Shown one piece after another: positions 1-38,721 of a DNA stretch of 64,000 nt. The position numbers and the translations under genes are program-made. The notes beneath the pieces are model-generated. The model was not told where the DNA came from. It saw nothing but the letters and a program-made list of their open reading frames with translations, and searched no databases. The first letter of the stretch is position 1. Every line of letters begins with the position of its first letter. Source of the DNA: an uncultured Alphaproteobacteria bacterium (lineage in GTDB: Bacteria; Pseudomonadota; Alphaproteobacteria; Rhodobacterales; Rhodobacteraceae); NCBI GenBank assembly GCA_902531755.1, contig CACAFI010000002.1:12321-76320 (forward strand), read 5' to 3'.

Positions 1-1554
1 GCTCAACTCACCAGAGACGTCCCAATAAATTGCTCTTCTACCCGCTAATCCCGCAATGAACCCTGCACTATTTATAGTGAAACAAATACTCAAATCCGCG
101 GCAAAACAACTAGGAACCATTCTTGAGTATTTTGTAGAAACAATACACCTACCACATGACATAAGTTGATTTAAATCACTGGAGATTAATTCATCTTGTT
201 TTATTTTCTCAAAAGCTGCACCTTTTGATTGAATTATAATTCCATAGTCCGACTGATTTCGTATATATTTGAATATCCATCTATAAAACAAAAGAACTTC
301 GTTAGTCGTTGAGTCAATTTCTGTATGGCTGTGTGTACTATCCAGTATTGTGAAAACAGAAGTAACTTCCGAAGGGAAATTCTTCCTAATATTCTGAGCA
401 CTTCTGATATCTGCAGGAAGGATATTTTCTCCGCATATTAATCCCGTTTGAACCATGTAATCATACTTATAATTATGGCAGTTAAAATACCCGTCATTAT
501 AATCTCCCCAGGAGAACACCAAATCTGCAAATCCTACATTAAAATAAGAAATTGGGTAGTGATCAACTGACCAATGATTCCAAATAAAAATGCCTTCCTC
601 TTTTTTAACTGCTAATGCTAAACAAAGAGGGAGTGGCCAACATTCTTGATGCTGATGAACAACCTTTACATTATATTTTTTTATTATGCTTCTGTACCAT
701 TCAACAACGAAAACCAAATAAAGTTGTATTAAATACAAAGTTAATCCATTTCCCTTGAGTGTTCCTTGCATTTTTACTCTTAAAAACATTTTGAGAAGAT
801 TAATTATACTTACCTTACTTCTAAATCTCCCATTAAGGTTCACCCATGGAAATTTATGTTTTTCAATAATCTTTACATTATCTTCTGAAAACTTATCATC
901 TTTTCTTTCAAAGTATAGAACTACCCGACCTCCGTCCAATCCTGTAGAAGGATACCAAAAAAGGTGCCCCGCATGAGGGTATCTACTGAAAATATTTGAT
1001 ATATACAGAGCAAATATTTTACTTCTTTTATCATTAGCACCAATGTTTGTACTTTGTGGAAATATATGTGTATAGCCCAACAAGAGATCAAAAATTGCTT
1101 TGGCAACCAATAAGAATGGTAGAAAAACTTCCATTAAATTTATCGTTCGTGATACCGTCAAATGTTTCACTTTTGGCATATTTGAAAGCCAAATCTTAAA
1201 AATAGGGAAAGTATCGAGATAAATTGTTACCTTTTTCTGGACAGGCATACTATTTACGAAATTTCTCATTAAAAAATATAAATCTGTTTTATGTCTTATT
1301 CTCGTTAGGTACCAAGAATGGATAATTCTGCTCCAGAAGTCCTCTTTCTCAAAATAACCATTTATTTTAAGTTCCTTATCAGAAAGATACGACTTTACTA
1401 ATTGCCAGTTCAGTTCTTCCGTTGTGTAACGAATAGCCGAACCAGTTTCATCTACTCTATTGATAGATCCTAGATCGATTTGCTCCAAAAGACTTGAGCA
1501 TAAGCCAAAAGAGTTCAGAAGTTTTCTAGCAAGTGTAGAACTGTAAATGTACAT
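1..1554 (-). CDS. Hypothetical polysaccharide-island protein, 3' end beyond window (possible GT-B/capsule-synthesis-like enzyme)
   Basis: Absent from the supplied ORF track because it has no stop inside the window. I reverse-complemented and translated 1554->1 codon by codon. ATG at 1554..1552 (MYIYSSTLARKLLNSF...) stays open for 518 codons (...RYPHAGHLFWYPSTGLDGGRVVLYFERK...FSWGDYNDGYFNCHNYKYDYMVQTG...FIAGLAGRRAIYWDVSGELS). No diagnostic motif recognised. Confidence 0.55.
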   Translation of the reverse strand, partial: MYIYSSTLARKLLNSFGLCSSLLEQIDLGSINRVDETGSAIRYTTEELNWQLVKSYLSDKELKINGYFEKEDFWSRIIHSWYLTRIRHKTDLYFLMRNFVNSMPVQKKVTIYLDTFPIFKIWLSNMPKVKHLTVSRTINLMEVFLPFLLVAKAIFDLLLGYTHIFPQSTNIGANDKRSKIFALYISNIFSRYPHAGHLFWYPSTGLDGGRVVLYFERKDDKFSEDNVKIIEKHKFPWVNLNGRFRSKVSIINLLKMFLRVKMQGTLKGNGLTLYLIQLYLVFVVEWYRSIIKKYNVKVVHQHQECWPLPLCLALAVKKEEGIFIWNHWSVDHYPISYFNVGFADLVFSWGDYNDGYFNCHNYKYDYMVQTGLICGENILPADIRSAQNIRKNFPSEVTSVFTILDSTHSHTEIDSTTNEVLLFYRWIFKYIRNQSDYGIIIQSKGAAFEKIKQDELISSDLNQLMSCGRCIVSTKYSRMVPSCFAADLSICFTINSAGFIAGLAGRRAIYWDVSGELS

Positions 1555-1661
1555 AATTTGCAAATTGGGGTCCTTAAACTTAAAGAAAAAAACAAAAAGC
1601 AAGCGCCAGAGATTTATTTTCTCCCAAATTAAAATATCTCTGTACTTTTTTTTAGACAAAG

Positions 1662-4331
1662 CTAAAGAGCTAATTTTGGAATTGGAGCTATCGCCGGGGA
1701 CAAACCCCTCTCAACCAACATATCGCAGACGTTGAGTAAAAAATAATCTCTATACCTAGCAGAGATAACTTGCACTCCTAAGGGAAGGTCATCAGGTCCA
1801 AGAAAAGCGGGCAAATTTACACTTGGGACATAGCAAAGAGACCAAATTAAACTAGGGTCTATTTTTTCTCGAATGTTAGGCCCTTTCTGAGCAATCTCTG
1901 CTGTTGAGTTAGATACCATAATGTCATACTGAAATAACAGCTTATTTAATATTGCAGCGAGGTTAGCTTGCTTACCTAGTGCCGTTCGGTATTGATCGGC
2001 ACTTATCTGGTTCCCTCGATCTATCATTGCTCTTGTAGTATCACTAATTAGTTTACTTTGATTTTTATGCTCTGCCTTAAAATAGTACGAGATGGATTTA
2101 TCATAGATAATTGAATGTATCAAATGCGCTTCTTCAAATTCGCTTGGCAACCTTATTTCTTCTACATTATGCCCAAGAAAAGAACATTTATTCACAAAGT
2201 TTTGTAGCTTATTTTTGGTATAATCAGCCATTTCATTCCAGGCATGTGTTACTGGAACAGCTATTTTTAGAGAATTTTTCTTTAACATTTGATTGGTTTT
2301 ATTTTCTAAATAACGATTAACAAAAGGATAATTTTTTCCTCTTACTCTTATCGTATCTAAAGCCATTCTTAAATCATTTACTTCTAATCCCATAAATGTA
2401 ATGTGATCCAAAGTATCTGCGGTCTTAAGCACTCCTGTTCTTGGGATTATACCAAATGAAGGCTTCATACCGTATATTCCAACATAACTCGAGGGTCTAA
2501 TAGTCGAGCCTGCTGTCTGTGAACCCAAAGATACCGGCGCCATTCGAGTGGCAACTGCAACTGCAGAACCACTAGAGGATGTTCCAGGTGAACGAGTTAG
2601 ATCATAAGGATTTTTAGTTAAACCAGGGTGATCTATTGCAAATTCTGCGGTCACAGTTTTACCTAAAATGATTGACCCCTCAAGCCTCAGTTTATTTACA
2701 CATCTGGCATCATTACCTGGACAAAATCCTTTCCAAGATTTACTACCCATCTGAGTTGGATAATCTGCAGTATTGAATATATCTTTAATTGCAAATGGAA
2801 GACCACTGATATCACCTGTAAATTTATTTCGCATATTTGCATAATCAAGAAGTTTGGCTTGTAATAACGAATTTTCGAAATCATACTCAACCCATGCATT
2901 TACAGACTCTTCAACTTTTTTGTATTGTGAGTAATACGATCTTACAAGAGCTTCGATCGATATGGTTTTGCTATTAATTTTCTTTACAATCTGTGTAGCT
3001 GTTAGTTCATGAAGTTTCTGGGAACCATCGTTTTCTTGATATTTTCTACTGTCATAGTTTCTCAAAATCTTTTTTGCTTCGTGGTTCATCAAACCAAAGT
3101 TTGGAAAAACTCTAGGTGCTTGAAGGCCTAAATGTCTTCTATTTTCACGATTTATTGGAGACTTAGGATCAAGTATTTTTTGAATGGAATCATTCACGGG
3201 ACGATCCGAATCTATTGTCATATCGTCGGTAGCAGGTAAATTTCTTTTTGCGGCATCTTCTCTTTGAGCTTCCAAAACAGCTATAAATTTATCTTCCGTT
3301 ATCCCTGTTATTTTAGAATAATAACTCAAAATCTTTGGCTTAACGGGGTCTGTCTGTTTTTGAATTTCATTAGCCTCTTCAACAGTCATTAGTCCTGCTC
3401 TTACATCTTGCATGGCAAAATCTGTCCCTCTACCAAAACCTCTTTTTATATATTTTGCATAATCATGTACTCCAGGCATGATGCACTCAACACTCTTATA
3501 TTGTTTATAGGTTCCCTCAACATCCTCTTCTTTCCAATCTAAATAGTCTCTAACAAACTCCGTTTGCCTTTCAGCATCCCAAAAAATAAAATCTCCTAGA
3601 AAAATTCTTTTAAGCCCAACTGCCTCTATTTCCTCTTTTGTAGGAGACTTAAAAGGTGCTAGATCTTTTTTTGATATATCTGCACAAAGCATCTCTTCTG
3701 GTTTAACTTTAGCCGACATTTGCAAAAAATAATCTATTGAGAAATCTGGGTTGTCCAAGTAGGTAGCTTTACCCGAATTTTCAGCAACTGACTCACCATA
3801 GATCAATAAAGGTATTTTAAACTTACAAGCAATATTTAATGGGAAAGCCTCAACCCCAGTGTGGCAATGCCAGCAAGCATCACCTATTTTATACAATGAC
3901 TCCCTTGCTAACTTATTAACAAGGCCTCGTTTTGGAGTAAATTCTAGATGATCAACATTTGTCTTTTCTAAGATATTTTGAAGGTTGTATCTTCCCGTTT
4001 CTGTAAACCAATTATGACTAAAGGTTACCGCTAAAGGTTTTAGGTCATAGATCTCCGTGAGAAGATATAACTGAAAAGCGCTATCTTTCCCTCCAGAGAT
4101 CGGAACTATACAGTCGTAATTATCGCCAGCATAAGTTTTATATTTATCTAATATTTTTCTTAGGTTTTTTTCACGGGTATCCCATGAGATCTTCATCTTC
4201 TGTTCTGAGGACCTGCAAGCCTTACACAAACCAAGCTTATCAAAATCAATATTCTCACTAGTTTCGGGATAACCACACCTTACACAAGTTATCATACCTT
4301 TAAACATTTGATCCTCTACTTCCATAATCAA
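1662..4331 (-). CDS. Fusion protein: N-acetyl-sugar amidotransferase (PP-loop ATPase, WbpG/PseA-like) + amidase-signature (GatA-like) domain
   Basis: The N-terminus has a Zn-ribbon (CVRCGYP...CKAC) and a PP-loop (VPISGGKDSAF), typical of the LPS N-acetyl sugar amidotransferase family. The C-terminal ~480 aa carry the amidase signature (AIKDIF..., PGTSSSGSAVAVA...GSQTAGSTIRPSSYVGIYGMKPSFG). The ORF start is TTG at 4331, overlapping the upstream TGA; ATG at 4325 is an equally plausible start. Confidence 0.85.
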   Translation of the reverse strand: MIMEVEDQMFKGMITCVRCGYPETSENIDFDKLGLCKACRSSEQKMKISWDTREKNLRKILDKYKTYAGDNYDCIVPISGGKDSAFQLYLLTEIYDLKPLAVTFSHNWFTETGRYNLQNILEKTNVDHLEFTPKRGLVNKLARESLYKIGDACWHCHTGVEAFPLNIACKFKIPLLIYGESVAENSGKATYLDNPDFSIDYFLQMSAKVKPEEMLCADISKKDLAPFKSPTKEEIEAVGLKRIFLGDFIFWDAERQTEFVRDYLDWKEEDVEGTYKQYKSVECIMPGVHDYAKYIKRGFGRGTDFAMQDVRAGLMTVEEANEIQKQTDPVKPKILSYYSKITGITEDKFIAVLEAQREDAAKRNLPATDDMTIDSDRPVNDSIQKILDPKSPINRENRRHLGLQAPRVFPNFGLMNHEAKKILRNYDSRKYQENDGSQKLHELTATQIVKKINSKTISIEALVRSYYSQYKKVEESVNAWVEYDFENSLLQAKLLDYANMRNKFTGDISGLPFAIKDIFNTADYPTQMGSKSWKGFCPGNDARCVNKLRLEGSIILGKTVTAEFAIDHPGLTKNPYDLTRSPGTSSSGSAVAVATRMAPVSLGSQTAGSTIRPSSYVGIYGMKPSFGIIPRTGVLKTADTLDHITFMGLEVNDLRMALDTIRVRGKNYPFVNRYLENKTNQMLKKNSLKIAVPVTHAWNEMADYTKNKLQNFVNKCSFLGHNVEEIRLPSEFEEAHLIHSIIYDKSISYYFKAEHKNQSKLISDTTRAMIDRGNQISADQYRTALGKQANLAAILNKLLFQYDIMVSNSTAEIAQKGPNIREKIDPSLIWSLCYVPSVNLPAFLGPDDLPLGVQVISARYRDYFLLNVCDMLVERGLSPAIAPIPKLAL

Positions 4332-8652: not shown

Positions 8653-9699
8653 TTACTTGGTTGCTAAAACTCTTATGCCGCCATCACCAAACTTCAATTT
8701 TACGTCTTTATCATCTGGAAACATACTAACGTCAATATCGAATAATTCTGAGCTCTTCATAACCTGTATGTTATTGAAGCCCATATTTCTAAGACGTCTT
8801 TCATTTTCTTCAAATGATATAAAGTGATATTTTGCGTAAAAAATATCCATCCACAAATGTATATCAGGAATATTCAATTTTTTTATAATTTCAAAAGTAT
8901 CCCGGAAAGGAATGCCCACAAATGATTTCTGAATAATATCCCAAACGTCATGATAAATACCGCCACTTCCTTCTACATATAGCCAAAACTTCCCTCCAGG
9001 CTTTAAAACCCTGTATATTTCTTGAAGAGCTTTTCCAGGATTATCTAGATGATGAAGAACGCCATTACACGTTGCAAAATCAAAATACTCCTCCGTGAAA
9101 CTTAAATTATAAGCGTTTTGAACCGAAAAATTGGTATCTTTTATTTTCATTTCGACTGCCAATTTTTTAGCAAACTCAATGGATTTCTGTCCGGGGTCAA
9201 TACCCCAAACTTTTGCCCCAAGGCTTGCCATACAAAAACTAAACCTACCTGTACCACAACCAATATCAATACACTTTTTTCCAGTGAAAAACTTTCTATC
9301 CAGATTGTTGAGTTTTAGCCTTCCTTTTATCACATCGATCCATTTTTTATAATTATTTAAAGGATCTGATAACGTTAGCGTTCTCCAAGTATCGTTAAAA
9401 AGCTCGATATGCAGGTCATCTCGTGCGTCTCCCTCTTTTTGGGCACTAAAATTTTCAGTTTCGGAGTCATTCAAGTGTATAGACGCGATAAAGTGGTTCA
9501 TGATATCTAAATAAGAATTTTGTCTATCAAATATTTTTTTTATGTAGATGTTAGGGTCCGAGTTGGTAAAAATGTTATTATCTATTTCACGTTGTAAAGA
9601 TATCGTAGAAATTATGCGTACTGCTAGTGAAAGCCCTGACTTTTTAAAGGTTCTTAACTTTTCTTCATAAGTTTCTATATATTTTTTCGTATCTACCAT
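8653..9699 (-). CDS. Class I SAM-dependent methyltransferase with ~150-aa N-terminal extension
   Basis: Motif I CIDIGCGTGRFS and post-I/II regions (VLHHLDNPGKALQEIYRVLKPGG). Confidence 0.8.
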   Translation of the reverse strand: MVDTKKYIETYEEKLRTFKKSGLSLAVRIISTISLQREIDNNIFTNSDPNIYIKKIFDRQNSYLDIMNHFIASIHLNDSETENFSAQKEGDARDDLHIELFNDTWRTLTLSDPLNNYKKWIDVIKGRLKLNNLDRKFFTGKKCIDIGCGTGRFSFCMASLGAKVWGIDPGQKSIEFAKKLAVEMKIKDTNFSVQNAYNLSFTEEYFDFATCNGVLHHLDNPGKALQEIYRVLKPGGKFWLYVEGSGGIYHDVWDIIQKSFVGIPFRDTFEIIKKLNIPDIHLWMDIFYAKYHFISFEENERRLRNMGFNNIQVMKSSELFDIDVSMFPDDKDVKLKFGDGGIRVLATK

Positions 9700-9765: not shown

Positions 9766-10938
9766 TCAAATATTTTTATGATTTTTTCTTATCAAAATAG
9801 TGATTATCCAGAATCTGGATTGTAAATAAAAAATCGGCGAGAGTAACAGTTTATCTAGCCTAAGGATATATCTTAAAGTGATAACTATCAATGGGTTAAG
9901 TTTCCAAAGATACAACATTAAGACACCTTTAGGCTTGTGAGTTTTTTTCATAATCGACAACTCTCCTTTTAATGGTAGAAACAGTGTTTTCATGTCAAAA
10001 GAGTTTTTGCCGAAGCAATTATAAGAATAACTCTCAATATACTTTCCAAAAAAATATTCAATCAATTTCTTTTCATTAAATGAAATTTCTGATTTCCAGC
10101 GATTTATTACTTCTAAGGATTTTCCTTGCACAGGTTTGCCGGATGAACTATTTCCCAACCAGGGGTGACCACCAAGAGTACTTTCATTCAAACACGGCTT
10201 AAAAGATATTTTCAGCCAGTCTGCAAGACTACTAACTGTAGTCTCATAGTCTGAATGCAAGTCTTCATTTTTCAACCGAAACCATTTTTCTTTTTTTCTC
10301 ACAAAAGAAAATCTTTCAATTTGTTGATAATCGAGTTTTAAATCTTTAATAGCTTTTATTAAGAGGTTGGAATATCCCAATCGTCTTCTTTGAACAAAAT
10401 TACCATTAGAATTAAGAATTTGTTTTTTTATTGACATAAAATTTGCCCTGGGATCTCTTACGATTTCTATAAATTTAGAATTTTGAAAGTCTTTTGCTAA
10501 TTGGTTTAACATTGTCGCTCTTCCTGGAAACTCGATAATTACCTTTATTTTATTAAGATCCTGTCCGATGGTTATTCCATATGCTTCATGCAACGCATAG
10601 AAAACATTCAATTTTGATAGTCCGTCTCTCTTCAGTAAGCTTTTGAAAGATTTCTTATATTGTTCAATGTCGCAATTGGAAAATTTTTCTGTTCCCGATT
10701 GCACTCCATAGAGAATTCCTGTTTTGAAGTTTGAGATTTTTGTTTTAGTTGTCCAAACATAAACCATTTCATCAAGGCTCAGATCTCTTCCCTCACAAAG
10801 ATATTCCCAATTAATACTGAACTTCAATTCCATAGGTAGCATGAGTATTTCTGGATGAGAGTCGAGGATGCTTTGGACAAATCCACCACCAGCTCTTCCT
10901 GGACAAATCAAAAAACCTATTGGCAAAGATTTTAGCAA
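9766..10938 (-). CDS. Sulfotransferase-fold protein with hydrophobic C-terminal tail (divergent 5'-PSB loop)
   Basis: The N-terminal loop CPGRAGGGFVQSILDSHPEI sits where the PAPS 5'-phosphosulfate loop is expected. A 3'-phosphate motif IEIVRDPRANFMS is present. The C-terminal ~50 aa are hydrophobic. TTG start. Paralog of 32528..33688. Confidence 0.65.
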   Translation of the reverse strand: MLKSLPIGFLICPGRAGGGFVQSILDSHPEILMLPMELKFSINWEYLCEGRDLSLDEMVYVWTTKTKISNFKTGILYGVQSGTEKFSNCDIEQYKKSFKSLLKRDGLSKLNVFYALHEAYGITIGQDLNKIKVIIEFPGRATMLNQLAKDFQNSKFIEIVRDPRANFMSIKKQILNSNGNFVQRRRLGYSNLLIKAIKDLKLDYQQIERFSFVRKKEKWFRLKNEDLHSDYETTVSSLADWLKISFKPCLNESTLGGHPWLGNSSSGKPVQGKSLEVINRWKSEISFNEKKLIEYFFGKYIESYSYNCFGKNSFDMKTLFLPLKGELSIMKKTHKPKGVLMLYLWKLNPLIVITLRYILRLDKLLLSPIFYLQSRFWIITILIRKNHKNI

Positions 10939-10945
10939 TCTGCCG

Positions 10946-11671
10946 CTACCATAGTCTTTTCAAAGAGGAGTAATAAGACAAATCACTCTCACTATCCACT
11001 TCATACCAAGAATCCCCAATGGGTATTGCGGATATGGTAATACCTGCATTTAGTAGCCTTCTTAAAAGAGTAGTAATATCCATTCCCATTTTTTCTTCAA
11101 AAGAAAATTCGTTTATAATACTCAAAATTTCTTGCCACCCAATAGGCTCAATCTTGAATAACCCCATGAATTGACCCTCTATTTCCTTCAAATTCTTAGG
11201 TTTTCTTCCTATATCTGTAAGAAGTCCTTGAGAATTAATTTTAAAACTTTCAGCGTCAGATAATGGGTTAGTAAATCTTTTTGACCAAAGAGAGAACCAG
11301 TTTTTATCATAGGCCATTCCAATTGGGTCTTTTAGGATTTTTAATCTTTTGACGGCATCGCGGGAATATACAATATCCGAATAACTTATAATGCATGAAT
11401 ACTTTTCCAGCCAGTCCCTAGCAGTTAATAAAGAAGCCAAGATATTTGAGTTTTGCCAATTGCTATTTACAAAATATCGTAAATCTTCGGAAAACATTTG
11501 CCTTTTGTATCCGGTAACAATTGCGATTTCCTTAATTCCGGCACCTCGAAGCGAACTTAATTGCCAGTCAATTAATCTTTTCCCATGTAGTTCTATAAAG
11601 CATTTAGGTTGATTTATAGTGAGGTCTCGCATCCTACTACCTCGACCTGCTGCAAGTATAATAGCTTTCAT
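10946..11671 (-). CDS. Nucleotidyltransferase (cytidylyltransferase family; Cj1416-like candidate CTP:phosphoglutamine cytidylyltransferase)
   Basis: MKAIILAAGRGSRM...QPKCF NTP-transferase signature. Size is 241 aa. ATGA overlap with the upstream GATase gene. Confidence 0.75.
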   Translation of the reverse strand: MKAIILAAGRGSRMRDLTINQPKCFIELHGKRLIDWQLSSLRGAGIKEIAIVTGYKRQMFSEDLRYFVNSNWQNSNILASLLTARDWLEKYSCIISYSDIVYSRDAVKRLKILKDPIGMAYDKNWFSLWSKRFTNPLSDAESFKINSQGLLTDIGRKPKNLKEIEGQFMGLFKIEPIGWQEILSIINEFSFEEKMGMDITTLLRRLLNAGITISAIPIGDSWYEVDSESDLSYYSSLKRLW

Positions 11672-12288
11672 GCTTGACCATTAAACACAGAATTTAATCT
11701 TTCAATATCATACCTTCTAAATGTTTTAAAACGTTCCGGATGCCACATCCATCCTTCCCATGGTAAACTTTTATGCTCAATTGCTTCAATACAGCCATCG
11801 TTAGCACTGGCGAGTAAATTATAGTCATTTGGCATTTTTTTAAATGCAAACTTGTGAAAACTATTTACAACCCCCGATATTCGCCCAGTAACTTCGTGAA
11901 CTTTATTTGAATGATCATTAATTGGTTCCAGTACACCGCCACTCCTTGTTCCCAAAACTTGCATTCCCCTGCAAATTCCTAAAACAGGTAAATTACCTTT
12001 TTCTGCAAAATCTAAAAGCCAATTTTCGTTATCATCCCTTTCCTTGTTTTCTAATAAATCGTTCCCTCCAGAAAGAATAAATGCTGATAGGTCCAATTCC
12101 CTAACCCAACCGATTAACTCTTCCTGACGTTTACTGGTGTCTGAATTCATACTGAGTTTGTTTGGTATCGGTATTGGTAAAAAGCCAGATGTTTTTATAA
12201 AAGCGATTAATTTCTGATCTAAAGCATCTCGATATTCAGAACGATTTGGTTTGAAATCTATTCTCTGACTGACGCCAACCCGTCTCAA
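11668..12288 (-). CDS. Class I glutamine amidotransferase / peptidase C26 fold hydrolase (Cj1417-like candidate gamma-glutamyl-CDP-amidate hydrolase)
   Basis: Nucleophile elbow GICRGMQVL and WMWHPE His-Glu motif. The track ORF extends to 12348, 64 nt into the upstream gene. A TTG at 12288..12286 overlaps the upstream TGA (TTGA) and precedes the conserved RVGVSQR N-terminus, so I place the start there. Confidence 0.75.
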   Translation of the reverse strand: MRRVGVSQRIDFKPNRSEYRDALDQKLIAFIKTSGFLPIPIPNKLSMNSDTSKRQEELIGWVRELDLSAFILSGGNDLLENKERDDNENWLLDFAEKGNLPVLGICRGMQVLGTRSGGVLEPINDHSNKVHEVTGRISGVVNSFHKFAFKKMPNDYNLLASANDGCIEAIEHKSLPWEGWMWHPERFKTFRRYDIERLNSVFNGQA

Positions 12289-14600
12289 GCAAGGATCTCC
12301 ACTTTTCTGCTCGCACAGTCGATATGTAATTTTTGAGCATTCGACCAAAGATTATACAACGCTTCTCCGGCGCCGATTACAGCTGGTAACCCTAACTCTC
12401 CCGCTCTGATAGCCATATGAGAATTTGCGCCTCCCCAAGCAGTTATCAAGCCAGAAATAGGAAAGGAAAACAGCCAGTCAAAGCCTGGGTCTGCATTTTC
12501 AATACATACGATAGAACCTGACAGTTGCTCATGAGAAATGTTATTTAAGACACTAGCAGTGACTTGTTTTTGAGTAATAAAGTTTGGAACAGTATTTGGC
12601 CAATCAAAGGCCCAAACGTCTTCTGGTTTTACTATTAGTGGTGGTAATACTGTCTTTAAAGAATCTAAATAATTTTTTTTTCCTTCATCAATACTTCGAG
12701 ATAATATGTTTTTAATATTGGTTGCTGAAACATGAAGTTCTTTAAATATTTGAATATCACAATACGCAAGATCTTCGCGTGAATATCCATAAATCTCTCC
12801 AAATTTTTGGATATAGGATATTGCATCTGAAAGATTTCGCGTAAATTTAAATTTGGCTAACTCTCTTAATTCAATACCAGTTTTTATAAATTCTATTAAT
12901 CCCTGTGGATCAAGTTCGAGCCTATGAAACTTTATAAGTTCCTCAATTTCCTTTATTTGCCGTGAATTTGGAGCGAACGGACTTGATTTCTTGGCATTAG
13001 CTGGTTTCAAATCCCAGTTAAAGTAGAGTTCAGGTGACTCGTCATAACGTGGAGATGTTATATCATATGTTCCAGGTCTCAAATGACCGTAATGGGAAAG
13101 AAAATCTTGTTTATTTAGGCGAGTTCGGTCAGTAGCCATCTGGCTGTTAATGTTGACAAGACCCGTCATAAAAGCATCGAAGTCTTCTTTAGAGAAAACG
13201 TTTTTTGCTAATAAAGAATGAAGAAATTGTACGGCGATAAAGCCTACTCTTGCAAGTCCCGCAAAAGGCAAGGTACCGTATCGTTTCGTATCTTCTAGCA
13301 ACCAATAAATTTTCTCCAGACAATCCATATTTGATTGGTTTATAATTTTTCTTCTTTTCTCCAAAACATTAAGCTTTTTGGAGTCATTGAGCCACAATCC
13401 ATCTTTAGGATCTACAATCCTTTTTGTAAGTTTCCTTAAACTATCGGCTATCAAAACCAATTCTGAACTTGAAAAACCATCCTTTTTAAGCTCATCCAAA
13501 CGATCCTGTAAATCTAACGTATAACAAGAAAAAACAATATCAAACTCTATCTTATCATGAAGGTAGGGTTCTTTTAATAACCTATCAATATAATAATCGA
13601 TAAGACGTGCTGCTAAACCTTCATCTAAGGAAGCTGGAATAAATGAATTAAAGGACACGCGGACATCGATATAGGGTAATCCAAAAAAATGAGGCATCAA
13701 CGGAAAGCTTCTTAGATTGCGATATCCATAATTATGCCGTTGATATGCCCAAATTGAGTCAGTTACTAATTCTCGATAAAGAGAAAGAGCCAAAGGTTTT
13801 GGACGAATACCTACTATTTCTGCAGGATTCCAATCGGGCATCACACCATAAACAGTCCTTTTTCCCATTAAAAAAGGATGGGCTTGCATATTTTTAGATA
13901 GTTTTTGTTCTAATTGTAGGAGTCTTATTTTTTGTTCACTTTCCGTTTCAGGTTTTTTACCCAAGTAGAGTGGTCTAACTTGTAACAACCAGAGATCTTC
14001 TATCTCATTATTGAAGGTGGATGCAAATTCAACATCTAGTGGTTTATTAATAAAGATCTGCAAGAGTTCTTCAATAAGGTCTATAACTTGACCATGAACC
14101 TTTGGAATATTCTTAGTACATTTTGCAGCTTGTTGCCACATTTTACTATCTTGTCCGCCAGTAACAATTGCTGTATTATTTCCCTCAGACCAATTTATTA
14201 ACCTGTATGGCGTGCAAGTGTTCGGATCATGAGAAAAAGCAACACCTGAGCGTATGACATTTGTTAACATTCTCTGAACTAAAATTTGACTTTTATCTTC
14301 TTTTCCTTTGTAGCTTGCTATTACCTTTTCAATAGCCAAATTTAATTCGTTAAGGCGTAGGTTTGGAATAGACAAAAACTCACCGGCAGCTGAGTGCCCT
14401 TCTTGATCTTCAGTACAACAACTGGAACGTACTATCAATGGAAAGTCACCTAAATTTTTCTCAATCATTTTTAAACAAGCTATCGGATCAATTCGCCAAT
14501 CATCTACTGAAAAAAATACAAATTCAGGAATCGTTGCTTTTCTAACGATCTTTTTTAATTTATTAAGAGTGATAGCTTTAGTAGAAAATATTTGCGACAT
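12285..14600 (-). CDS. ATP-grasp (PPDK_N-type) + C-terminal phosphohistidine swivel-domain kinase lacking a PEP/pyruvate TIM barrel (Cj1418-like candidate L-glutamine kinase)
   Basis: N-terminal LIVRSSCCTEDQEGHSAAGEF. The mobile-domain motif GGANSHMAIRAGELGLPAVIG lies ~44 aa from the C-terminus. Size is 771 aa. Confidence 0.75.
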   Translation of the reverse strand: MSQIFSTKAITLNKLKKIVRKATIPEFVFFSVDDWRIDPIACLKMIEKNLGDFPLIVRSSCCTEDQEGHSAAGEFLSIPNLRLNELNLAIEKVIASYKGKEDKSQILVQRMLTNVIRSGVAFSHDPNTCTPYRLINWSEGNNTAIVTGGQDSKMWQQAAKCTKNIPKVHGQVIDLIEELLQIFINKPLDVEFASTFNNEIEDLWLLQVRPLYLGKKPETESEQKIRLLQLEQKLSKNMQAHPFLMGKRTVYGVMPDWNPAEIVGIRPKPLALSLYRELVTDSIWAYQRHNYGYRNLRSFPLMPHFFGLPYIDVRVSFNSFIPASLDEGLAARLIDYYIDRLLKEPYLHDKIEFDIVFSCYTLDLQDRLDELKKDGFSSSELVLIADSLRKLTKRIVDPKDGLWLNDSKKLNVLEKRRKIINQSNMDCLEKIYWLLEDTKRYGTLPFAGLARVGFIAVQFLHSLLAKNVFSKEDFDAFMTGLVNINSQMATDRTRLNKQDFLSHYGHLRPGTYDITSPRYDESPELYFNWDLKPANAKKSSPFAPNSRQIKEIEELIKFHRLELDPQGLIEFIKTGIELRELAKFKFTRNLSDAISYIQKFGEIYGYSREDLAYCDIQIFKELHVSATNIKNILSRSIDEGKKNYLDSLKTVLPPLIVKPEDVWAFDWPNTVPNFITQKQVTASVLNNISHEQLSGSIVCIENADPGFDWLFSFPISGLITAWGGANSHMAIRAGELGLPAVIGAGEALYNLWSNAQKLHIDCASRKVEILA

Positions 14601-14606
14601 GGAAAA

Positions 14607-15389
14607 TTAATCCTTGCGTTTTGCAGACCAAGCTCTTGTTAGATAGATTGCTTCAATAGTTTTTTTTGAAGAAACTTTGCTCTTTACAAAATCTAAAAAC
14701 TCATTAAATTTCTTTGGCCCTAATTGCCTCTGAAGATCATTTACTGAACGCCAAGCTCCCATATAGCGAGCAGGACTCATAGAAATAGTATGCCTACCCT
14801 CCAAATACACCACATCCTCAAAATATGGCGAAGACCAAAGCAGTTCTGTCAGATTTTCTGTAATACCTGATCTACCAGAAGACACCCTTTTAATATCAGG
14901 TTTCAAATTTTTAAGAAAGGCCTCTATCTCTAAAAATAATGGATTGCTCTCAACAAGTCGTGGATTCCATAATGCTGTAAAATAACCACCAGATTTTAGA
15001 AGGCGGTGAAACTCCTTTGTTGCTTGACCAAAATTTGCCCAATGAAAAGCAGAGGCCATCGTTATCCAATCAACCGAACTACTTTCCAGACTTATCTCTT
15101 CAGCTTTACCAGACTGCCATTCTATAGACATATCTCTACTGTCCAACTTTCCTCGCTGTAGCATTTCCTCATTAGGTTCTATTGCTTTAGCAGACTTTAC
15201 CCCACTCTGGTAGACCATACGTGTCCAAATGCCTGTTCCTGCACCTACATCTAGAAAATCAATGTCGTATGTATTTTTGTTCAAAAGACCAAACAATCCT
15301 CTTAATACAGACGGGCTATAATCGGGCCTATGTTCTGAGTAATCTTTTGATAAACCGCTAAAATCACCTGCTTTTATTATCTTAGTCAT
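14607..15389 (-). CDS. Class I SAM-dependent methyltransferase (Cj1419/Cj1420-like position)
   Basis: Motif I FLDVGAGTGIWT, then LLKSGGYF. Size is 260 aa. Confidence 0.8.
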   Translation of the reverse strand: MTKIIKAGDFSGLSKDYSEHRPDYSPSVLRGLFGLLNKNTYDIDFLDVGAGTGIWTRMVYQSGVKSAKAIEPNEEMLQRGKLDSRDMSIEWQSGKAEEISLESSSVDWITMASAFHWANFGQATKEFHRLLKSGGYFTALWNPRLVESNPLFLEIEAFLKNLKPDIKRVSSGRSGITENLTELLWSSPYFEDVVYLEGRHTISMSPARYMGAWRSVNDLQRQLGPKKFNEFLDFVKSKVSSKKTIEAIYLTRAWSAKRKD

Positions 15390-15399
15390 ATAATTTATT

Positions 15400-15960
15400 T
15401 TAACTCAATTTATTCATTAAATCGAAAGCAATATCAAATGCCTTCCGGTCTGGATGATAGTTAACCACCCAGTCCGGGGAAAAAGGCTCATCGACATCTA
15501 AATCAAGGCCGGCCACATTTTTTAATTCGCCGCTATTATAGCTACTATAGATTTGTTTTGAGTCTCTCCTTTGAAGTATGTCTAATGGAACATGTAGATA
15601 TACTTCAAAGTAGCTTTTTAGGTTCTTTCTATTCCAAATGTGTACCTCCTTAAAAAGTGAAATAGTTGCAATAACAACTATAAATCCCTGCTTAACCAGA
15701 AGCCGACCTACTTTGCTATATTGAAAAGCTAATTTAATCCGCTCATTCTTAGTATAACTACCCGCTTTTTCATGATCTAATCGCAAAATTTCTCTTAGGT
15801 CATCACCATCCAACAAAACTGCCTTCAAACCTTTTTTTTCCAACAGTGAAATAAAGTTCCTAGCAACGGTGGACTTACCTGAACCAGAAAGTCCTGTGAT
15901 CCATATTAACTTTTTTTTTAACACTTTATTTAGGCCTTCCAAATTTAACCGAACTTTCAT
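15400..15960 (-). CDS. APS-kinase-fold P-loop kinase, divergent (Cj1415-like candidate CDP-amidate 3'-kinase; alternatively CysC)
   Basis: LIWITGLSGSGKSTVA Walker A and VLLDGDDLR. The following region differs from the canonical CysC pattern retained by the second copy at 36789. Confidence 0.7.
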   Translation of the reverse strand: MKVRLNLEGLNKVLKKKLIWITGLSGSGKSTVARNFISLLEKKGLKAVLLDGDDLREILRLDHEKAGSYTKNERIKLAFQYSKVGRLLVKQGFIVVIATISLFKEVHIWNRKNLKSYFEVYLHVPLDILQRRDSKQIYSSYNSGELKNVAGLDLDVDEPFSPDWVVNYHPDRKAFDIAFDLMNKLS

Positions 15961-31978: not shown

Positions 31979-32335
31979 TTAAGATTTGATTTTGGTTGAC
32001 AACTTAGTTTCTCTTTCCAATGCATCTATCTCTTTTCGAAGTTCCTCAAATTCCCTTTTTTTCCTTTTAATGAATCCAATGGTTAAGACGCTTTTTTCTC
32101 TGATACCTTTAGGTGTTAGAAGGTAAACGTACTGTTTTTTTGTTTTACTGGATTTAAAATTATCTAGCTTGACAAATCCTTTTTCGATCAAAGCCATTAA
32201 TATATAGTATGCATACCCATTCGAAACACCGAGTTTTTCAGCTATTTTCCTCGTAGACAACTCGGGCCTTGTGCTAATCAAATGTAATAACCTAAAGCTG
32301 GCATCTGCCAATCTTTTTTCTTTTTGGCTAACCAA
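31979..32335 (-). CDS. MarR-family EPS-associated winged-helix transcriptional regulator
   Basis: 118 aa with LLHLISTRPELSTRKIAEKLGVSNGYAYYILMALIEKGFV HTH and a C-terminal coiled coil. TTG start 7 nt after GGAG. Confidence 0.75.
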   Translation of the reverse strand: MVSQKEKRLADASFRLLHLISTRPELSTRKIAEKLGVSNGYAYYILMALIEKGFVKLDNFKSSKTKKQYVYLLTPKGIREKSVLTIGFIKRKKREFEELRKEIDALERETKLSTKIKS

Positions 32336-32527: not shown

Positions 32528-33688
32528 CTAAAATGTATATCTGTTTGAAAGCAAGTAAAATATAAGCCTTCCTCTATTAATCGGATACATGAGCAGATTG
32601 TTGATAGTATATACAAAAAATTTCATAAAAAACCAAAATGAAAGACCTCTCTTACCAAATCTAGATCGCTTTAGTGCCTCTTTATGAGGAAGAATTTCTC
32701 CTTTCCAAGGTAGAAAGCAAGCAAATAGAGCCAATATTTTATTTGAAAATGACTTAGGGAAGACACCTTTATACCCTAAGGCGTTCATGCTATTCTCAAA
32801 TAAAAACTCTATCATTCTAATTTCAGAAGAAGACATTTGAGTTCTCCAGCGAAAAGCAATTTCAGGGTTTATTCCAGTTATACCAGTGTCATTAAATGCA
32901 CTACTCGAAATGCTTGGCTTACCAATTCTAGTGGTTTTGAGCAGATTTTTGTTGAACTCCACGCCCAACCAGCGACATAGACTTGAAATGGTTCTTTTTG
33001 GGGCAGTCAAAATCTCCTCATGCTTTACAATCTTTAGCCTATCTTTAAAAGTTTTTTGATTTCGATGAAGCATTTTCATATTTGTCACCATATAGTCGTT
33101 CAGAATATGAAAAAATACGTTTCTTATTGTCCCGGAAATTGGGTTCATGGTACCCAGAGCTTGTCTATAATATTCCTTAAGAGAGTGAATGTTAGACCTA
33201 TGATCTTTTAAGATGTGAATAAATCGAGCTTCTGGAAAATCTTTAATTATAAAGCTCGTATAGTCACTATAGTAACCATCAGCAACAATTATTTTAAGTT
33301 TTTGGAAATCCTTTTTTAGAACTTTTGCGAAAGCGTAATAAATGGCAATTCGTGTGTTACGAGAGCAAACATGATTTTTGGATAAATATTGCCTGAAAAA
33401 CTTTTCATATAATTTCCAATTTATCATGGAGTAATCTTGTCTAGCACCCATATTTATAAAATAATCTTGCTTAAAGTTGACGATTTTTGAGGAGTAAAGA
33501 ACCTTATCGACTACATCATCAATGCTACTTTCATTATTAAGTTTGTTCTGGATCCAAACGGAACTAAATTTATCATTGAATGGCAGAACAACTATTTCGT
33601 CGTGATTGTCTAACAGAGTCCTCAATAAATCTGAACCGGATCTACCAGCCCCTTGCAAAAAAACTATAGGAAGTTGTTCAAATCTCAT
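32528..33688 (-). CDS. Sulfotransferase family protein with hydrophobic C-terminal tail
   Basis: Canonical-like 5'-PSB loop LQGAGRSGSDLLRTLLDNHDEI and 3'-phosphate region IHILKDHRSNIHS. Paralog of 9766..10938. Confidence 0.7.
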   Translation of the reverse strand: MRFEQLPIVFLQGAGRSGSDLLRTLLDNHDEIVVLPFNDKFSSVWIQNKLNNESSIDDVVDKVLYSSKIVNFKQDYFINMGARQDYSMINWKLYEKFFRQYLSKNHVCSRNTRIAIYYAFAKVLKKDFQKLKIIVADGYYSDYTSFIIKDFPEARFIHILKDHRSNIHSLKEYYRQALGTMNPISGTIRNVFFHILNDYMVTNMKMLHRNQKTFKDRLKIVKHEEILTAPKRTISSLCRWLGVEFNKNLLKTTRIGKPSISSSAFNDTGITGINPEIAFRWRTQMSSSEIRMIEFLFENSMNALGYKGVFPKSFSNKILALFACFLPWKGEILPHKEALKRSRFGKRGLSFWFFMKFFVYTINNLLMYPINRGRLIFYLLSNRYTF

Positions 33689-33939: not shown

Positions 33940-35010
33940 ATGACGACCTTGAAACTAAAATCTGAGCAGTTTTTGGATTGCTTAAACATTGCGGGGGGGT
34001 TGTTTAATCCTTTAGACGGGTTCATGTCATGTAAGGAAATTAATAGTGTATTGAATGACCTCTATTTGTTAAATGGTTCGCCATGGACAATTCCTATATC
34101 TCTAGACGTCCCTTATGAAATTTACTTCCGAAAAAGTCAGATAGATATTATGTCGCTTGAATTTGATCACAAGGGTGTTGGTAGTTTAGAGGTAGATGGT
34201 TTTTATGAGTTAGATCAACAAGCTTACATAAAAGCTCTTTATGGAACAGAAGATGAAGAACACCCCGGTGTAAAACAAGAAATGACAAAATCAAAATACA
34301 GGGTTGCTGGCAAGATTAAAATAAATGAAAAGGTTATGCGAAACTATATCGAGTCTGCTGAGATAATAAAATCTCAATTGAAGGGGAAAGGATGGGACTC
34401 AATAGTTGGGTTCCAGACAAGAAATCCTATCCATAGAGCGCACGAATATCTTCAAAGAACTGTTTTGGAGCTTTTTGATGGATTGTTTATAAATCCCTTA
34501 ACTGGATGGAAGAAGAAAGGTGACTTTACTGAAAAAGCAGTGCTAAACGGTTATGAAGCGATGATAGAGAATTATTATTCTGGATTAAATGTCTTTATGA
34601 AACCTCTTAGAACCTCTATGAAATATGCAGGGCCTAAAGAAGCAATACATCATGCGATACTAAGAAAGAACATTGGTTGCACTCACTTTATAGTAGGTAG
34701 AGATCATGCTGGGGTGTCAAACTATTATGGAGATTATGAAGCCCACTCGTTGATTAATAAATTAAAAATGAACGGATATAATATAGGCATTAAAATACTT
34801 TTAATGAAGGAACCAGTTTATTGTAATTTTTGTGGACATGTGGTTACAGAAAACTCTTGTTCACATGAATCTAAATATAAGGAAAAAATAAGTGGAACCC
34901 AAATAAGACTTTTGTTAAAACGAGGCGAAATGCCTCCAGCCAGATTCATGAGAGAAGAAGTATCGAAGGCTGTAATGAGCTTAGGCAAAAATATATTTAT
35001 AAACTCATGA
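33940..35010 (+). CDS. sat: Sulfate adenylyltransferase (ATP sulfurylase, single-subunit Sat type)
   Basis: QTRNPIHRAHEYL and VGRDHAGV motifs. Size is 356 aa. Confidence 0.9.
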   Translation: MTTLKLKSEQFLDCLNIAGGLFNPLDGFMSCKEINSVLNDLYLLNGSPWTIPISLDVPYEIYFRKSQIDIMSLEFDHKGVGSLEVDGFYELDQQAYIKALYGTEDEEHPGVKQEMTKSKYRVAGKIKINEKVMRNYIESAEIIKSQLKGKGWDSIVGFQTRNPIHRAHEYLQRTVLELFDGLFINPLTGWKKKGDFTEKAVLNGYEAMIENYYSGLNVFMKPLRTSMKYAGPKEAIHHAILRKNIGCTHFIVGRDHAGVSNYYGDYEAHSLINKLKMNGYNIGIKILLMKEPVYCNFCGHVVTENSCSHESKYKEKISGTQIRLLLKRGEMPPARFMREEVSKAVMSLGKNIFINS

Positions 35011-35020
35011 AAGGATTTCA

Positions 35021-35965
35021 ATGGAAAAGATAATTGCAACTGTAGGGCCATCTCTTTTAAACCAATATCCGATAAATAAAGTATATTCAGATGATTTAAT
35101 TTTCCGCGTAAATGGTGCACATGGAAGCATATCTCATATAAAAGAGTATATAGAAAAAATAAGAAGAGAGAGAAAAGATGCATTAATTCTTATGGATTTG
35201 CCAGGCAATAAAATCAGAACAAATAATATAAACGAACCTATAAAACTAAAAGTTGGAGAACCATTTGAATTAAATTTCCAACAGACCAACTTTGCTAACT
35301 TTTTTAAATATATTAAGAAAGGAGACAAAGTTTGGGCAAATGACTCGACTTATGAATTTGAAGTTATGAAAGTAAATCAAGAGCATGAAATTATTACCTT
35401 TCTTTCTAAATCCGAAGGTCTTCTTCTAAACAATAAAGGAATGCATGTGAGGGGAATTCATAAGGATATTCCCTTCCTTTTTGATAAAGACATCAAACTT
35501 ATTGAATTAGCAAATAAGATGGATTTACAATTTATCGGTCTATCGTTTGTTAGAAACTTGAAAGATATAAAAAGTGCTAAAGAGCTTGTTAACCAGAATG
35601 TACAAATTATTACAAAGGTTGAGACGAAGGCTGCCGTTGAGAATCTTAACGAAATTTTAAATAATACCGACTTTATATTAATTGACAGAGGAGACCTATC
35701 AACTGAAGTAGGTCTGGAAAATATACCGTCTTACCAGAAGCATATCTTAAGTATAGCTAAGGTGCACGGAGTAAAAACATTTTTGGCAACACAATTTCTT
35801 AAAAATATGGAACACAACCCTGTCCCATCGATACCAGAGATAATAGATTTATATAACACCATTACAGAGGGTATTTATGGCATTCAACTGTCTGAAGAAA
35901 CTGCTGTCGGCAAGCATCCCTATAGCTGTATACAACTCGTAAGAAACATGTTAAAAAAAACCTAG
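35021..35965 (+). CDS. Pyruvate kinase-like protein, A+B domains only (no C-terminal regulatory domain)
   Basis: PK motifs are present: FRVNGAHG, MDLPGNKIRT, KVETKAAVENL, IDRGDLSTEVG, ATQFLKNM, SEETAVGKHP. The PTRAE motif is altered to PSIPE, and the protein ends ~25 aa after GKHP. Confidence 0.75.
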   Translation: MEKIIATVGPSLLNQYPINKVYSDDLIFRVNGAHGSISHIKEYIEKIRRERKDALILMDLPGNKIRTNNINEPIKLKVGEPFELNFQQTNFANFFKYIKKGDKVWANDSTYEFEVMKVNQEHEIITFLSKSEGLLLNNKGMHVRGIHKDIPFLFDKDIKLIELANKMDLQFIGLSFVRNLKDIKSAKELVNQNVQIITKVETKAAVENLNEILNNTDFILIDRGDLSTEVGLENIPSYQKHILSIAKVHGVKTFLATQFLKNMEHNPVPSIPEIIDLYNTITEGIYGIQLSEETAVGKHPYSCIQLVRNMLKKT

Positions 35966-36078
35966 TTTTATAAGAGCAGAGTGAGAAATAAAACTTTAAA
36001 AATTATGTTGTTCTTTCGGTGAGTGTGCTTGAAGAAAATTAATAATATTTTTAAAAAAAGAAAAAGGATCTATCTGAT

Positions 36079-36792
36079 TTGGAGCTTTTACTTTACACCA
36101 CTATTGTAATAGTTTGCTTTGTTCAATCCATATTTGGAGTAGGAGTACTTTTATTAGGAACACCAACATTACTTATATTAGGTTATTCTTTTGTTGAGAC
36201 ACTGTCTCATTTGTTACCATTGTCACTTTTAATTAACTGCCTTCAGATCTATAACAATGGAAAAATAGTAGATTGGAACTTCATCAAACTTCTTCTTTTT
36301 TTCTCCATTCCCTCGACTGGTATTTGTCTGTATCTATCCTTATATTTTAGTTTTGATATTAGCCTAATTTTAGGCATATTTATGGTGATGTTAGCTCTAA
36401 AAAATACCACTCAAAAAATTGAAAAAGTTTTCAGTTTTTTGTTAAAAAAAGATATTGCTGTATTCACTTTCTTAGGGGTAATTCATGGCTTTACTAATTT
36501 GGGTGGCTCGATATTATCCATGAAGATTTTTATCCTTGATTATGATAAAGATATGAAAAGGGCAACAATGGCTACCGCATATTTTTTATTAGCAATAATC
36601 CAACTTTCTATCATTTTTTTAACGCAGCAGAGACTCAAATTTGACCCTACTTTTCTTCTGTTAGGAATAGCAACTTTTATTGTAACAGAACAATTTGTTT
36701 TCAAAAATCTTAGCCTGAAGCTCTTTGATAAGCTTTTTGCATATATAATTTTGATATTTGGTCTAAGCTTAATTATCAAGAGTGTCATATGA
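36079..36792 (+). CDS. TSUP (TauE/SafE) family membrane transporter
   Basis: 237 aa, ~7-8 hydrophobic helices with an internal repeat (GVGVLLLGTP / FTNLGGSIL). TTG start. Confidence 0.7.
   Translation: MELLLYTTIVIVCFVQSIFGVGVLLLGTPTLLILGYSFVETLSHLLPLSLLINCLQIYNNGKIVDWNFIKLLLFFSIPSTGICLYLSLYFSFDISLILGIFMVMLALKNTTQKIEKVFSFLLKKDIAVFTFLGVIHGFTNLGGSILSMKIFILDYDKDMKRATMATAYFLLAIIQLSIIFLTQQRLKFDPTFLLLGIATFIVTEQFVFKNLSLKLFDKLFAYIILIFGLSLIIKSVI

Positions 36793-38644: not shown

Positions 38645-38721
<77 letters not shown>

Follow-up and report, generated by a model that had tools for sequence, protein, structure and literature searches.

A predicted Campylobacter-type phosphoramidate donor cassette in a marine glycan island and its wide distribution among bacteria

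Phosphoramidate decoration serves Campylobacter as a phage receptor and as a serum-resistance factor. The O-methyl phosphoramidate (MeOPN) system has been called Campylobacter-specific (PMC6429109, PMC9561416), and the first-pass annotation of the DNA analysed here gave the same, correct account of the literature. The question raised by this DNA is whether the same chemistry is encoded in a very different bacterium. The window, a stretch of 64,000 nucleotides from contig CACAFI010000002.1 of an uncultured alphaproteobacterium, carries a cassette of five adjacent minus-strand genes between positions 10946 and 15960 that had been read as a pathway to the MeOPN donor. In C. jejuni, Cj1415-Cj1418 convert glutamine, ATP and cytidine triphosphate (CTP) to cytidine diphosphate (CDP)-phosphoramidate 3'-phosphate, and MeOPN is lost in Cj1421/Cj1422 knockouts (PMC11800397). 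Outside the genus, unmethylated phosphoramide occurs in the lipooligosaccharide (LOS) of Xanthomonas campestris and the lipopolysaccharide (LPS) of Shewanella sp. MR-4 (PMC3907429, PMC3210612), and a MeOPN-like cluster has been described in Borg elements in a preprint (10.1101/2024.11.05.622173). The Xanthomonas and Shewanella substituents, although unmethylated, place a P-N bond on a surface glycan outside Campylobacter, and the chemistry is therefore not genus-specific. We found no paper documenting the breadth of the cassette reported below; the primary enzymology papers lay outside this literature search. Here we show that the window copy is one more member of an under-recognised, widespread cassette family rather than a rarity, and we argue that the family probably makes the phosphoramidate donor.

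The cassette and the two genes that follow it are, in order of transcription:

15400..15960, minus strand: adenosine 5'-phosphosulfate (APS)-kinase-fold kinase of the Cj1415 type, predicted CDP-amidate 3'-kinase (186 aa; Pfam APS_kinase, 5e-30)
14607..15389, minus strand: class I S-adenosylmethionine (SAM) methyltransferase, predicted to carry out phosphoramidate O-methylation (260 aa; Pfam Methyltransf_11, 5e-16)
12285..14600, minus strand: L-glutamine kinase homologue of the Cj1418 type (771 aa; Pfam PPDK_N at 47-149 and PEP-utilizers at 695-764)
11668..12288, minus strand: class I glutamine amidotransferase (GATase), predicted gamma-glutamyl-CDP-amidate hydrolase of the Cj1417 type (206 aa from ATG; Peptidase_C26/GATase, 8e-19)
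10946..11671, minus strand: nucleotidyltransferase, predicted CTP:phosphoglutamine cytidylyltransferase of the Cj1416 type (241 aa; NTP_transf_3, 6e-17)
9766..10938, minus strand: sulfotransferase-fold protein with a C-terminal hydrophobic tail, candidate phosphoramidate transferase (390 aa; Sulfotransfer_3, 5e-10)
8653..9699, minus strand: second SAM methyltransferase, two genes downstream of the cassette (Methyltransf_11, 1e-26)

The five cassette genes are joined, in order, by a spacer of 10 nt, a spacer of 6 nt and two overlaps of 4 nt, and the sulfotransferase-fold gene follows as the sixth, 7 nt beyond the cassette end. All five open reading frames (ORFs) lie back to back where the first-pass annotation had placed them, and every motif quoted there was found again (WITGLSGSGKSTVA, LLDGDDLR, LIVRSSCCTEDQEGHSAAGEF, GGANSHMAIRAGELGLPAVIG, GICRGMQVL, WMWHPE and ILAAGRGSRM). 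An alternative TTG start of the GATase gene is open at 12348 in the ORF listing; gene calls on a related Tara contig take the 206-aa form with its 4-nt overlap. The five-gene arrangement far exceeds what chance would produce. The claimed collinearity of the methyltransferase, kinase, GATase and cytidylyltransferase genes with cj1419c-cj1416c holds. In both organisms the cassette stands within a surface-glycan locus, and the four enzymes share their domain architectures and, as predicted here, their families. The two loci differ in that the APS-kinase-fold gene comes first in the window and last in Campylobacter, and in that the window has one methyltransferase inside the cassette and a second two genes downstream, with a sulfotransferase-fold gene directly after the cassette. 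Its island is of the nonulosonic-acid type and not a Kps capsule locus, and its host is a free-living marine bacterium.

For the 771-aa protein, family models are decisive. Its only Pfam domains are the ATP-grasp PPDK_N domain and the mobile domain of enzymes that use phosphoenolpyruvate (PEP), and the PEP/pyruvate triosephosphate isomerase (TIM) barrel is absent by the same search, so that the architecture originally described, an ATP-grasp N-terminus and a C-terminal phosphohistidine swivel with no barrel between them, is confirmed. Against the NCBIfam equivalog NF004508 (PRK05849) the protein scores 953 bits (cutoff 501). Models for PEP synthase, rifamycin phosphotransferase and PigC give 28-44 bits, all through the histidine domain of about 70 residues, and those for PEP synthase and rifampin phosphotransferase (RPH) in particular reach 33-44 bits against cutoffs of 600-1000. 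Rifampin phosphotransferase, PEP synthase and pyruvate phosphate dikinase (PPDK) share the combination of an ATP-grasp and a swivelling phosphohistidine domain with the 771-aa protein; however, the latter lacks the TIM barrel and resembles them in sequence only over some 70 residues around the histidine. Membership of the PpsA/PPDK/RPH group, which the first-pass annotation had named as a placement that would speak against its reading, was accordingly rejected, as no full-length family match exists, only the swivel domain aligns, and NF004508 stands at 953 bits against at most 44. Matches in the PDB are confined to residues 694-770, in agreement with NCBIfam, and homologues at 61-63% identity are labelled 'glutamine kinase' by the Joint Genome Institute (JGI). 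H728 is invariant among the 35 homologous sequences compared and is the predicted phospho-carrier. The AlphaFold2 (AF2) model of this protein is poor, with a predicted local distance difference test (pLDDT) score of 62 overall and below 35 in the C-terminal domain, and the top full-length structural match of this low-confidence model is rifampin phosphotransferase.

The window encodes two APS-kinase-fold proteins, and these are readily told apart. The cassette kinase scores 184.8 bits on NCBIfam NF004041/PRK05541, above the cutoff of 127, and 115.9 bits on TIGR00455 (apsK), below the cutoff of 138.7. For the second protein, at 36789-37310, the canonical CysC-type models score best and PRK05541 gives 101.4 bits, below the same cutoff of 127. 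In pairwise comparison the cassette kinase reaches 125-186 bits with most other cassette kinases (one gives 93) and 68 with the CysC of the window. A canonical CysC identity for 15400-15960 was therefore rejected, as the apsK cutoff is missed and the sequence of the substrate loop is unlike that of the window's CysC (RIKLAFQYSKV as against REENIKRI). The divergence of the cassette kinase from a canonical pattern kept by the copy at 36789, which had been noticed by eye, is thus borne out by family models and pairwise scores alike, and by these measures the cassette kinase is placed in a subfamily distinct from CysC, the Cj1415 type.

For the GATase, the top NCBIfam model is NF045546, gamma-glutamyl-CDP-amidate hydrolase, at 99.4 bits (E=3e-28) over the full length, followed by the guaA N-terminal domain (49 bits) and PuuD (27.6 bits); the cysteine in GICRGMQVL and the histidine and glutamate of the His-x-Glu in WMWHPE are present. 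The nucleotidyltransferase has the NTP_transf_3 fold and the GxGxR motif, and its closest solved structure is that of LicC, the CTP:phosphocholine cytidylyltransferase, in a match limited to the N-terminal 84 residues. The methyltransferase always lies between kinase and glutamine kinase in related loci; its sequences fall into two groups, one about 58-72% and the other about 30% identical to the window copy. The second methyltransferase, at 8653-9699, keeps its position relative to the cassette and the sulfotransferase-like gene in the closest relatives (L001, at 74% identity; L084, at 70%; and L086).

Is the cassette a peculiarity of this island? Searching one genome per GTDB species with two peptide patterns gave 165 relatives, of which the best 80 (55-76% identity) were examined, and gene order was counted in the 71 of these 80 loci with enough flanking DNA for a whole cassette. 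Homologues of all five genes are present in 68 of the 71, and in 67 they stand in the order kinase, methyltransferase, glutamine kinase, GATase, cytidylyltransferase on one strand within 7.5 kb. Gene fusions tie the same families together: APS_kinase with glutamine kinase (P0262, P0269), NTP_transferase with glutamine kinase (P0367), and GATase, NTP_transferase and glutamine kinase in a triple fusion (P0393). Co-occurrence of the four families elsewhere, which the first-pass annotation had proposed to check, is therefore conserved, and an origin of the GATase and nucleotidyltransferase in unrelated pathways is contradicted by this order and these fusions. A HMMER search of 1.84 billion cluster representatives found 1541 clusters of the glutamine-kinase family at 50% identity (E<=1e-30), and the best 150 of these are mostly full-length matches. 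The idea that the pathway is specific to Campylobacter fails at the level of genes, with 1541 kinase clusters and cassettes across bacterial phyla.

Carriers among the best 80 loci include many Pseudomonas species, Leptospira alexanderi, Dechloromonas, Ensifer, Magnetospirillum, Magnetococcales, Nitrospira, Marinobacter, Opitutales and Verrucomicrobiales (both Verrucomicrobiota), a metagenome-assembled genome (MAG) of the Actinomycetota, a single-cell genome of SAR116 and one labelled Prochlorococcus, and a contig of the MAG 'Cyanobium sp. NAT70'. Cassettes are found on plasmids in Azospirillum, Vibrio alfacsensis, Roseovarius, Cupriavidus and Agrobacterium. The NCBI Prokaryotic Genome Annotation Pipeline (PGAP) names the plasmid homologues 'PEP-utilizing enzyme', 'gamma-glutamyl-gamma-aminobutyrate hydrolase family protein', 'phosphocholine cytidylyltransferase family protein' and 'adenylyl-sulfate kinase', and the pathway is therefore invisible in standard annotation. 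Campylobacter itself is not among the best 80 of the 165 loci, some relatives (L090) have a Campylobacter-like gene order, look-ups of ten kinase cluster representatives of about the right length returned Prodigiosinella/Rahnella and no Campylobacter, and PDB searches with the cassette proteins brought up no related Campylobacter entries.

Two of the loci deserve separate mention. The 'Cyanobium sp. NAT70' contig (L001, NZVB01000057.1; 21 kb, 35.6% GC) carries the nine-gene stretch of the window at 66-80% amino acid identity; its GC content is, we believe, unlike that of Cyanobium, and we take the contig to be probably mis-binned. At 652-3687, L083 (MT837632.1), an unverified 'Bacteriophage sp.' contig from human faeces, encodes a glutamine-kinase homologue of 1011 aa whose C-terminus is extended by a GATase-like segment. 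Carriage by a phage was considered on this account and rejected, since the 9.5-kb contig is unverified, has a GC content of 40-44% and is likely bacterial DNA.

Architectures, placement in families of hidden Markov models (HMMs), synteny, fusions and wide distribution are direct observations. From them we infer the chemical steps, the point at which methylation occurs, the transferase and the acceptor sugar. According to the scheme worked out for Campylobacter, the 771-aa kinase would phosphorylate the amide of L-glutamine via His728, and the nucleotidyltransferase would add cytidine monophosphate (CMP) from CTP to give CDP-L-glutamine. The GATase-fold hydrolase would split this into glutamate and CDP-amidate, whose 3'-OH would be phosphorylated by the APS-kinase-like enzyme. 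The embedded methyltransferase would add the O-methyl group, to the donor or to the group already transferred, and a transferase, for which the 9766-10938 protein is a candidate, would attach (methyl)phosphoramidate to a sugar in the island's surface glycan. Methylation on the nucleotide donor is possible in view of the Type A flagellar glycan of C. difficile, in whose pathway CDP-threonine is methylated before transfer (10.64898/2026.02.12.704994). That pathway, with its methyltransferase FtaC and phosphotransferase FtaD, is alike in methylating a CDP-activated non-sugar group on the donor and then moving phospho-X to a sugar, and so offers a precedent both for methylating the donor first and for the TagF-like transferases near some cassettes; it differs in that the group is N-methylthreonine phosphate and that there is no glutamine kinase, GATase step or 3'-phosphorylation.

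That the cassette makes 3'-phospho-cytidine-5'-diphosphoramidate, the MeOPN donor, in this way is a reading we hold with good confidence on sequence grounds, and several points weigh against it. The orthology with Cj1415-Cj1418 rests on curated HMMs and database names and not on direct reciprocal comparison. We take NF004508 to cover Cj1418 and PRK05541 to cover Cj1415, for which the JGI names give indirect support only. The GATase stays below the cutoff of 250 bits of NF045546. The Cj1416-type assignment of the nucleotidyltransferase is a prediction from invariant synteny and the fusions of NTP_transferase with kinase, not from a Cj1416-specific model. Within the sequenced part of the island no glycosyltransferase is recognised. 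Finally, Cj1419 and Cj1420 have no assigned function and the MeOPN methyltransferase of C. jejuni is unassigned (PMC11800397), so that the earlier statement that these two methyltransferases complete the set is not established. The functional reading of the first-pass annotation is nevertheless supported by HMM placement, synteny and fusions, while its premise of rarity has given way to a family of genes widespread across phyla.

Which protein would transfer the phosphoramidate is a harder question. The AF2 model of the 9766-10938 protein has a pLDDT of 92.5, and its top Foldseek matches, among them TPST2 and the sulfotransferase domain of CurM (E about 1e-9), are all enzymes that bind 3'-phosphoadenosine 5'-phosphosulfate (PAPS) or its product 3'-phosphoadenosine 5'-phosphate (PAP). 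A GRxG loop and a VRDPR motif are nearly invariant in the family, and the modelled protein is assigned on this basis to the PAPS-type sulfotransferase fold, with a 5'-phosphosulfate-binding loop and a 3'-phosphate-binding motif. A search of 5.8 billion proteins brought up no more than 20 homologues. Those at 49, 42, 39 and 27% identity adjoin the cassette (four of the six contexts examined), in differing gene orders, as do copies at 64-65% identity in L001 and L084. Of the 80 genome loci, 17 have sulfotransferase-like genes beside the cassette, placed at one end or the other or divergently, and the cassette kinase of Azospirillum is itself fused to a sulfotransferase-like domain. A metagenome scan with a narrow alignment of the sulfotransferase-like protein returned two short contigs.

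We propose this protein as a phosphoramidate transferase acting on 3'-phospho-CDP-amidate because the donor would be a structural analogue of PAPS. The parallel with the PAPS system of ATP sulfurylase, CysC, sulfotransferases and CysQ extends to the use of an APS-kinase-fold enzyme to make a donor of the form 3'-phosphonucleoside 5'-phospho-X, and to the recurrence of sulfotransferase-fold and CysQ-like genes at cassette loci. The cassette differs in that its nucleotide would be cytidine and the group transferred phosphoramidate instead of sulfate, and in the substrate loop of its kinase. A CysQ/inositol-monophosphatase-like gene occurs in 11 loci, in the gap between the GATase and cytidylyltransferase genes in ten (L002, L004, L005, L042, L043, L047, L058, L061, L062 and L071) and just downstream of the cytidylyltransferase in L070. 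Its product is a candidate 3'-phospho-CMP phosphatase; the insertion fits removal of a 3'-phosphonucleotide by-product, in the way that CysQ removes PAP. The window itself has neither a CysQ-like nor a TagF-like gene. On the sequence evidence the assignment of the transfer step to the 9766-10938 protein is a serious possibility that we rate somewhat below even chances.

The remainder of the window has to be taken into account here. Its other features are:

1-1554, minus strand: ORF of at least 518 aa that runs off the left window edge (no Pfam match; no BLAST similarity to genes flanking other cassettes)
1662-4331, minus strand: 889-aa protein that joins a WbuX-type N-acetyl-sugar amidotransferase (TIGR03573, 306 bits) to a GatA-like amidase domain
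31979-32335: small MarR-type regulator
32528-33688, minus strand: paralogue of the 9766-10938 protein (28% identity across the full length), likewise sulfotransferase-like and ending in a hydrophobic tail, adjoining the sulfate-activation genes
33940-37310, plus strand: sulfate-activation cluster, divergent from the island, of ATP sulfurylase, a pyruvate-kinase barrel-only protein (314 aa), a TauE/SafE permease and the canonical CysC
37476-37988, plus strand: NusG paralogue (NusG N-terminal domain, 3.5e-15) at the island boundary, adjoining tRNA-Phe
38645-38719, minus strand: tRNA-Phe

The strongest alternative accepts the donor pathway as proposed and takes the 9766-10938 protein for an ordinary PAPS-dependent sulfotransferase, leaving transfer to ORF 1-1554, to a gene outside the window or to a protein of the Cj1421/Cj1422 type. 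It stands only a little short of an even chance, and the facts that speak for it are those that weigh against our proposal for the transferase step. The window has a complete sulfate activation, with ATP sulfurylase and a canonical CysC, and the paralogous sulfotransferase-like gene (28% identity); the structural neighbours of the model are all PAP(S) enzymes; and two distant homologues (24-29% identity) have no glutamine kinase nearby. Candidates for a different transferase are also at hand. At least six other loci carry TagF-like (Glyphos_transf) proteins, a type proven to transfer phospho-X from CDP-X by FtaD of C. difficile (bioRxiv 10.64898/2026.02.12.704994), about 25 loci carry an uncharacterised protein of about 396 aa, and the edge ORF 1-1554, which has no Pfam match, may serve the island as a glycosyl- or phospho-transferase. 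Against this alternative, sulfotransferase-like genes keep their place beside the cassette in 17 of 80 loci and four of six homologue contexts despite differing orders and 27-49% identity, and Azospirillum has the fusion to the cassette kinase. Moreover, in most of those 17 loci a separate CysC is missing from the surrounding 10 kb, and a TagF-type transferase finds no representative in the window.

Some observations were made alongside. The protein of about 396 aa lies directly upstream of the cassette kinase at 7389-8624 of L007 and in about 24 further loci, mostly of Pseudomonas and also of Ensifer, Castellaniella and Janthinobacterium. It has no Pfam or NCBIfam match, and an 'ITDASTGG' segment is, by eye, reminiscent of TagF-type phosphotransferases. 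At L092 (6319-9245) and L091 (3826-5671), distant sulfotransferase-like homologues have an APS-kinase-like gene as neighbour, and within 8 kb there is no glutamine kinase; the neighbour in L092 encodes a cassette-type kinase fused to an Fe-alcohol-dehydrogenase domain. The arrangement at these two loci may point to other 3'-phospho-CDP-X donors.

A second alternative concerns the product, which might be an unmethylated phosphoramide on LPS or another glycan, or a small-molecule natural product with a P-N bond. The phosphoramides of X. campestris LOS and Shewanella MR-4 LPS show that unmethylated forms exist (PMC3907429, PMC3210612), the methyltransferases of C. jejuni await assignment (PMC11800397), and the methyltransferase of the cassette falls into two divergent types. 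However, the methyltransferase is embedded in nearly all loci, and its retention therefore argues for a methylated product; and the neighbours of the cassette are almost always genes of glycan biosynthesis (NeuB, DegT, epimerases, flippases, family 2 glycosyltransferases and sometimes flagellin), which is at odds with a natural product. We regard this alternative as improbable. The last, that the genes are unrelated neighbours (a PEP synthase/PPDK-like enzyme, a PuuD-like amidohydrolase, a LicC-like phosphocholine cytidylyltransferase and an APS kinase of sulfation), is effectively refuted by the computations: although PGAP gives the homologues exactly such names and, among solved structures, PEP synthase, GMP synthase subunit A, LicC and APS kinases come closest, there is no TIM barrel, the PEP synthase and RPH scores are far below their cutoffs, PuuD is outscored by the CDP-amidate hydrolase model, the kinase falls below the apsK cutoff, and unrelated functions cannot explain the five-gene order of 67 of 71 loci or the multi-domain fusions.

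The acceptor of the phosphoramidate would be sought in the island, which spans about 1-37 kb of the window. It encodes NeuB, a PseF-like cytidylyltransferase, a PseC/LegC-like aminotransferase, a NeuD-type acetyltransferase and a LegB-like dehydratase, which is a biosynthetic set of the nonulosonic-acid type, as well as an AsnB-like enzyme, the WbuX-type amidotransferase fused to an amidase, an ABC exporter and nucleotide-sugar enzymes. The 889-aa fusion is probably a self-contained, ammonia-supplying enzyme that forms the acetamidino group of the nonulosonic acid, and the long glycan operon may have a specialised antiterminator in the NusG paralogue. We considered whether cassette and nonulosonic-acid genes go together in general and rejected the idea, as only 3 of the 80 loci have NeuB at a distance of up to 10 kb. 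In three genomes that are not related to one another (L020, L043 and L064) flagellin genes stand no more than a few kb from the cassette, and in some lineages a flagellin glycan may be the target of the modification.

The marine origin and the glycan-island setting assigned at first reading are supported, and the host is probably an alphaproteobacterium. The MurA of the window is 78% identical to a protein of a 'Paracoccaceae bacterium', near-identical copies of the housekeeping proteins are present in Tara Oceans samples, and the flanking genes include the UPF0262 family, which we take to be typical of alphaproteobacteria. Two relatives (L094 and L095; MurA 79-80% identical) have the housekeeping order of the window's 38-56 kb and differ in gene content beyond RNase G, and the island is therefore a variable region; the role in phage evasion that the first-pass annotation suggested goes beyond this variability and is speculative. 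In one of them formyltransferase, CTP_transf_3, HMGL-like and NeuB genes stand at that place; in the other there is a polysaccharide exporter only, followed by the nuo operon.

Tentatively, and at odds below even, we suggest a wider picture in which the cassette-linked sulfotransferase-fold proteins would form a new class of phosphoramidate transferases whose donor mimics PAPS, CysQ-like enzymes would clear 3'-phospho-CMP, and marine and soil bacteria (Pseudomonas, Leptospira, SAR116, Prochlorococcus-associated contigs) would commonly carry P-N glycans on their surface, the glycan of the window being perhaps based on nonulosonic acid. The comparative genomics of the cassette bears on two questions in Campylobacter itself: on the source of the O-methyl group, with one methyltransferase embedded in nearly every cassette, and on the class of the transferase, with sulfotransferase-fold and TagF-fold candidates at its flanks. 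Cultured carriers, such as strains of the Pseudomonas fluorescens group, P. chlororaphis EA105, Leptospira alexanderi, Azospirillum (A. lipoferum 4B) and Vibrio alfacsensis, put the prediction within reach of 31P nuclear magnetic resonance. For marine microbiology, a modification containing both nitrogen and phosphorus joins the repertoire of variable glycan islands. If the reading is true, the decoration of surface glycans with phosphoramidate would be spread widely among bacteria, hidden by generic annotation, and not peculiar to Campylobacter.

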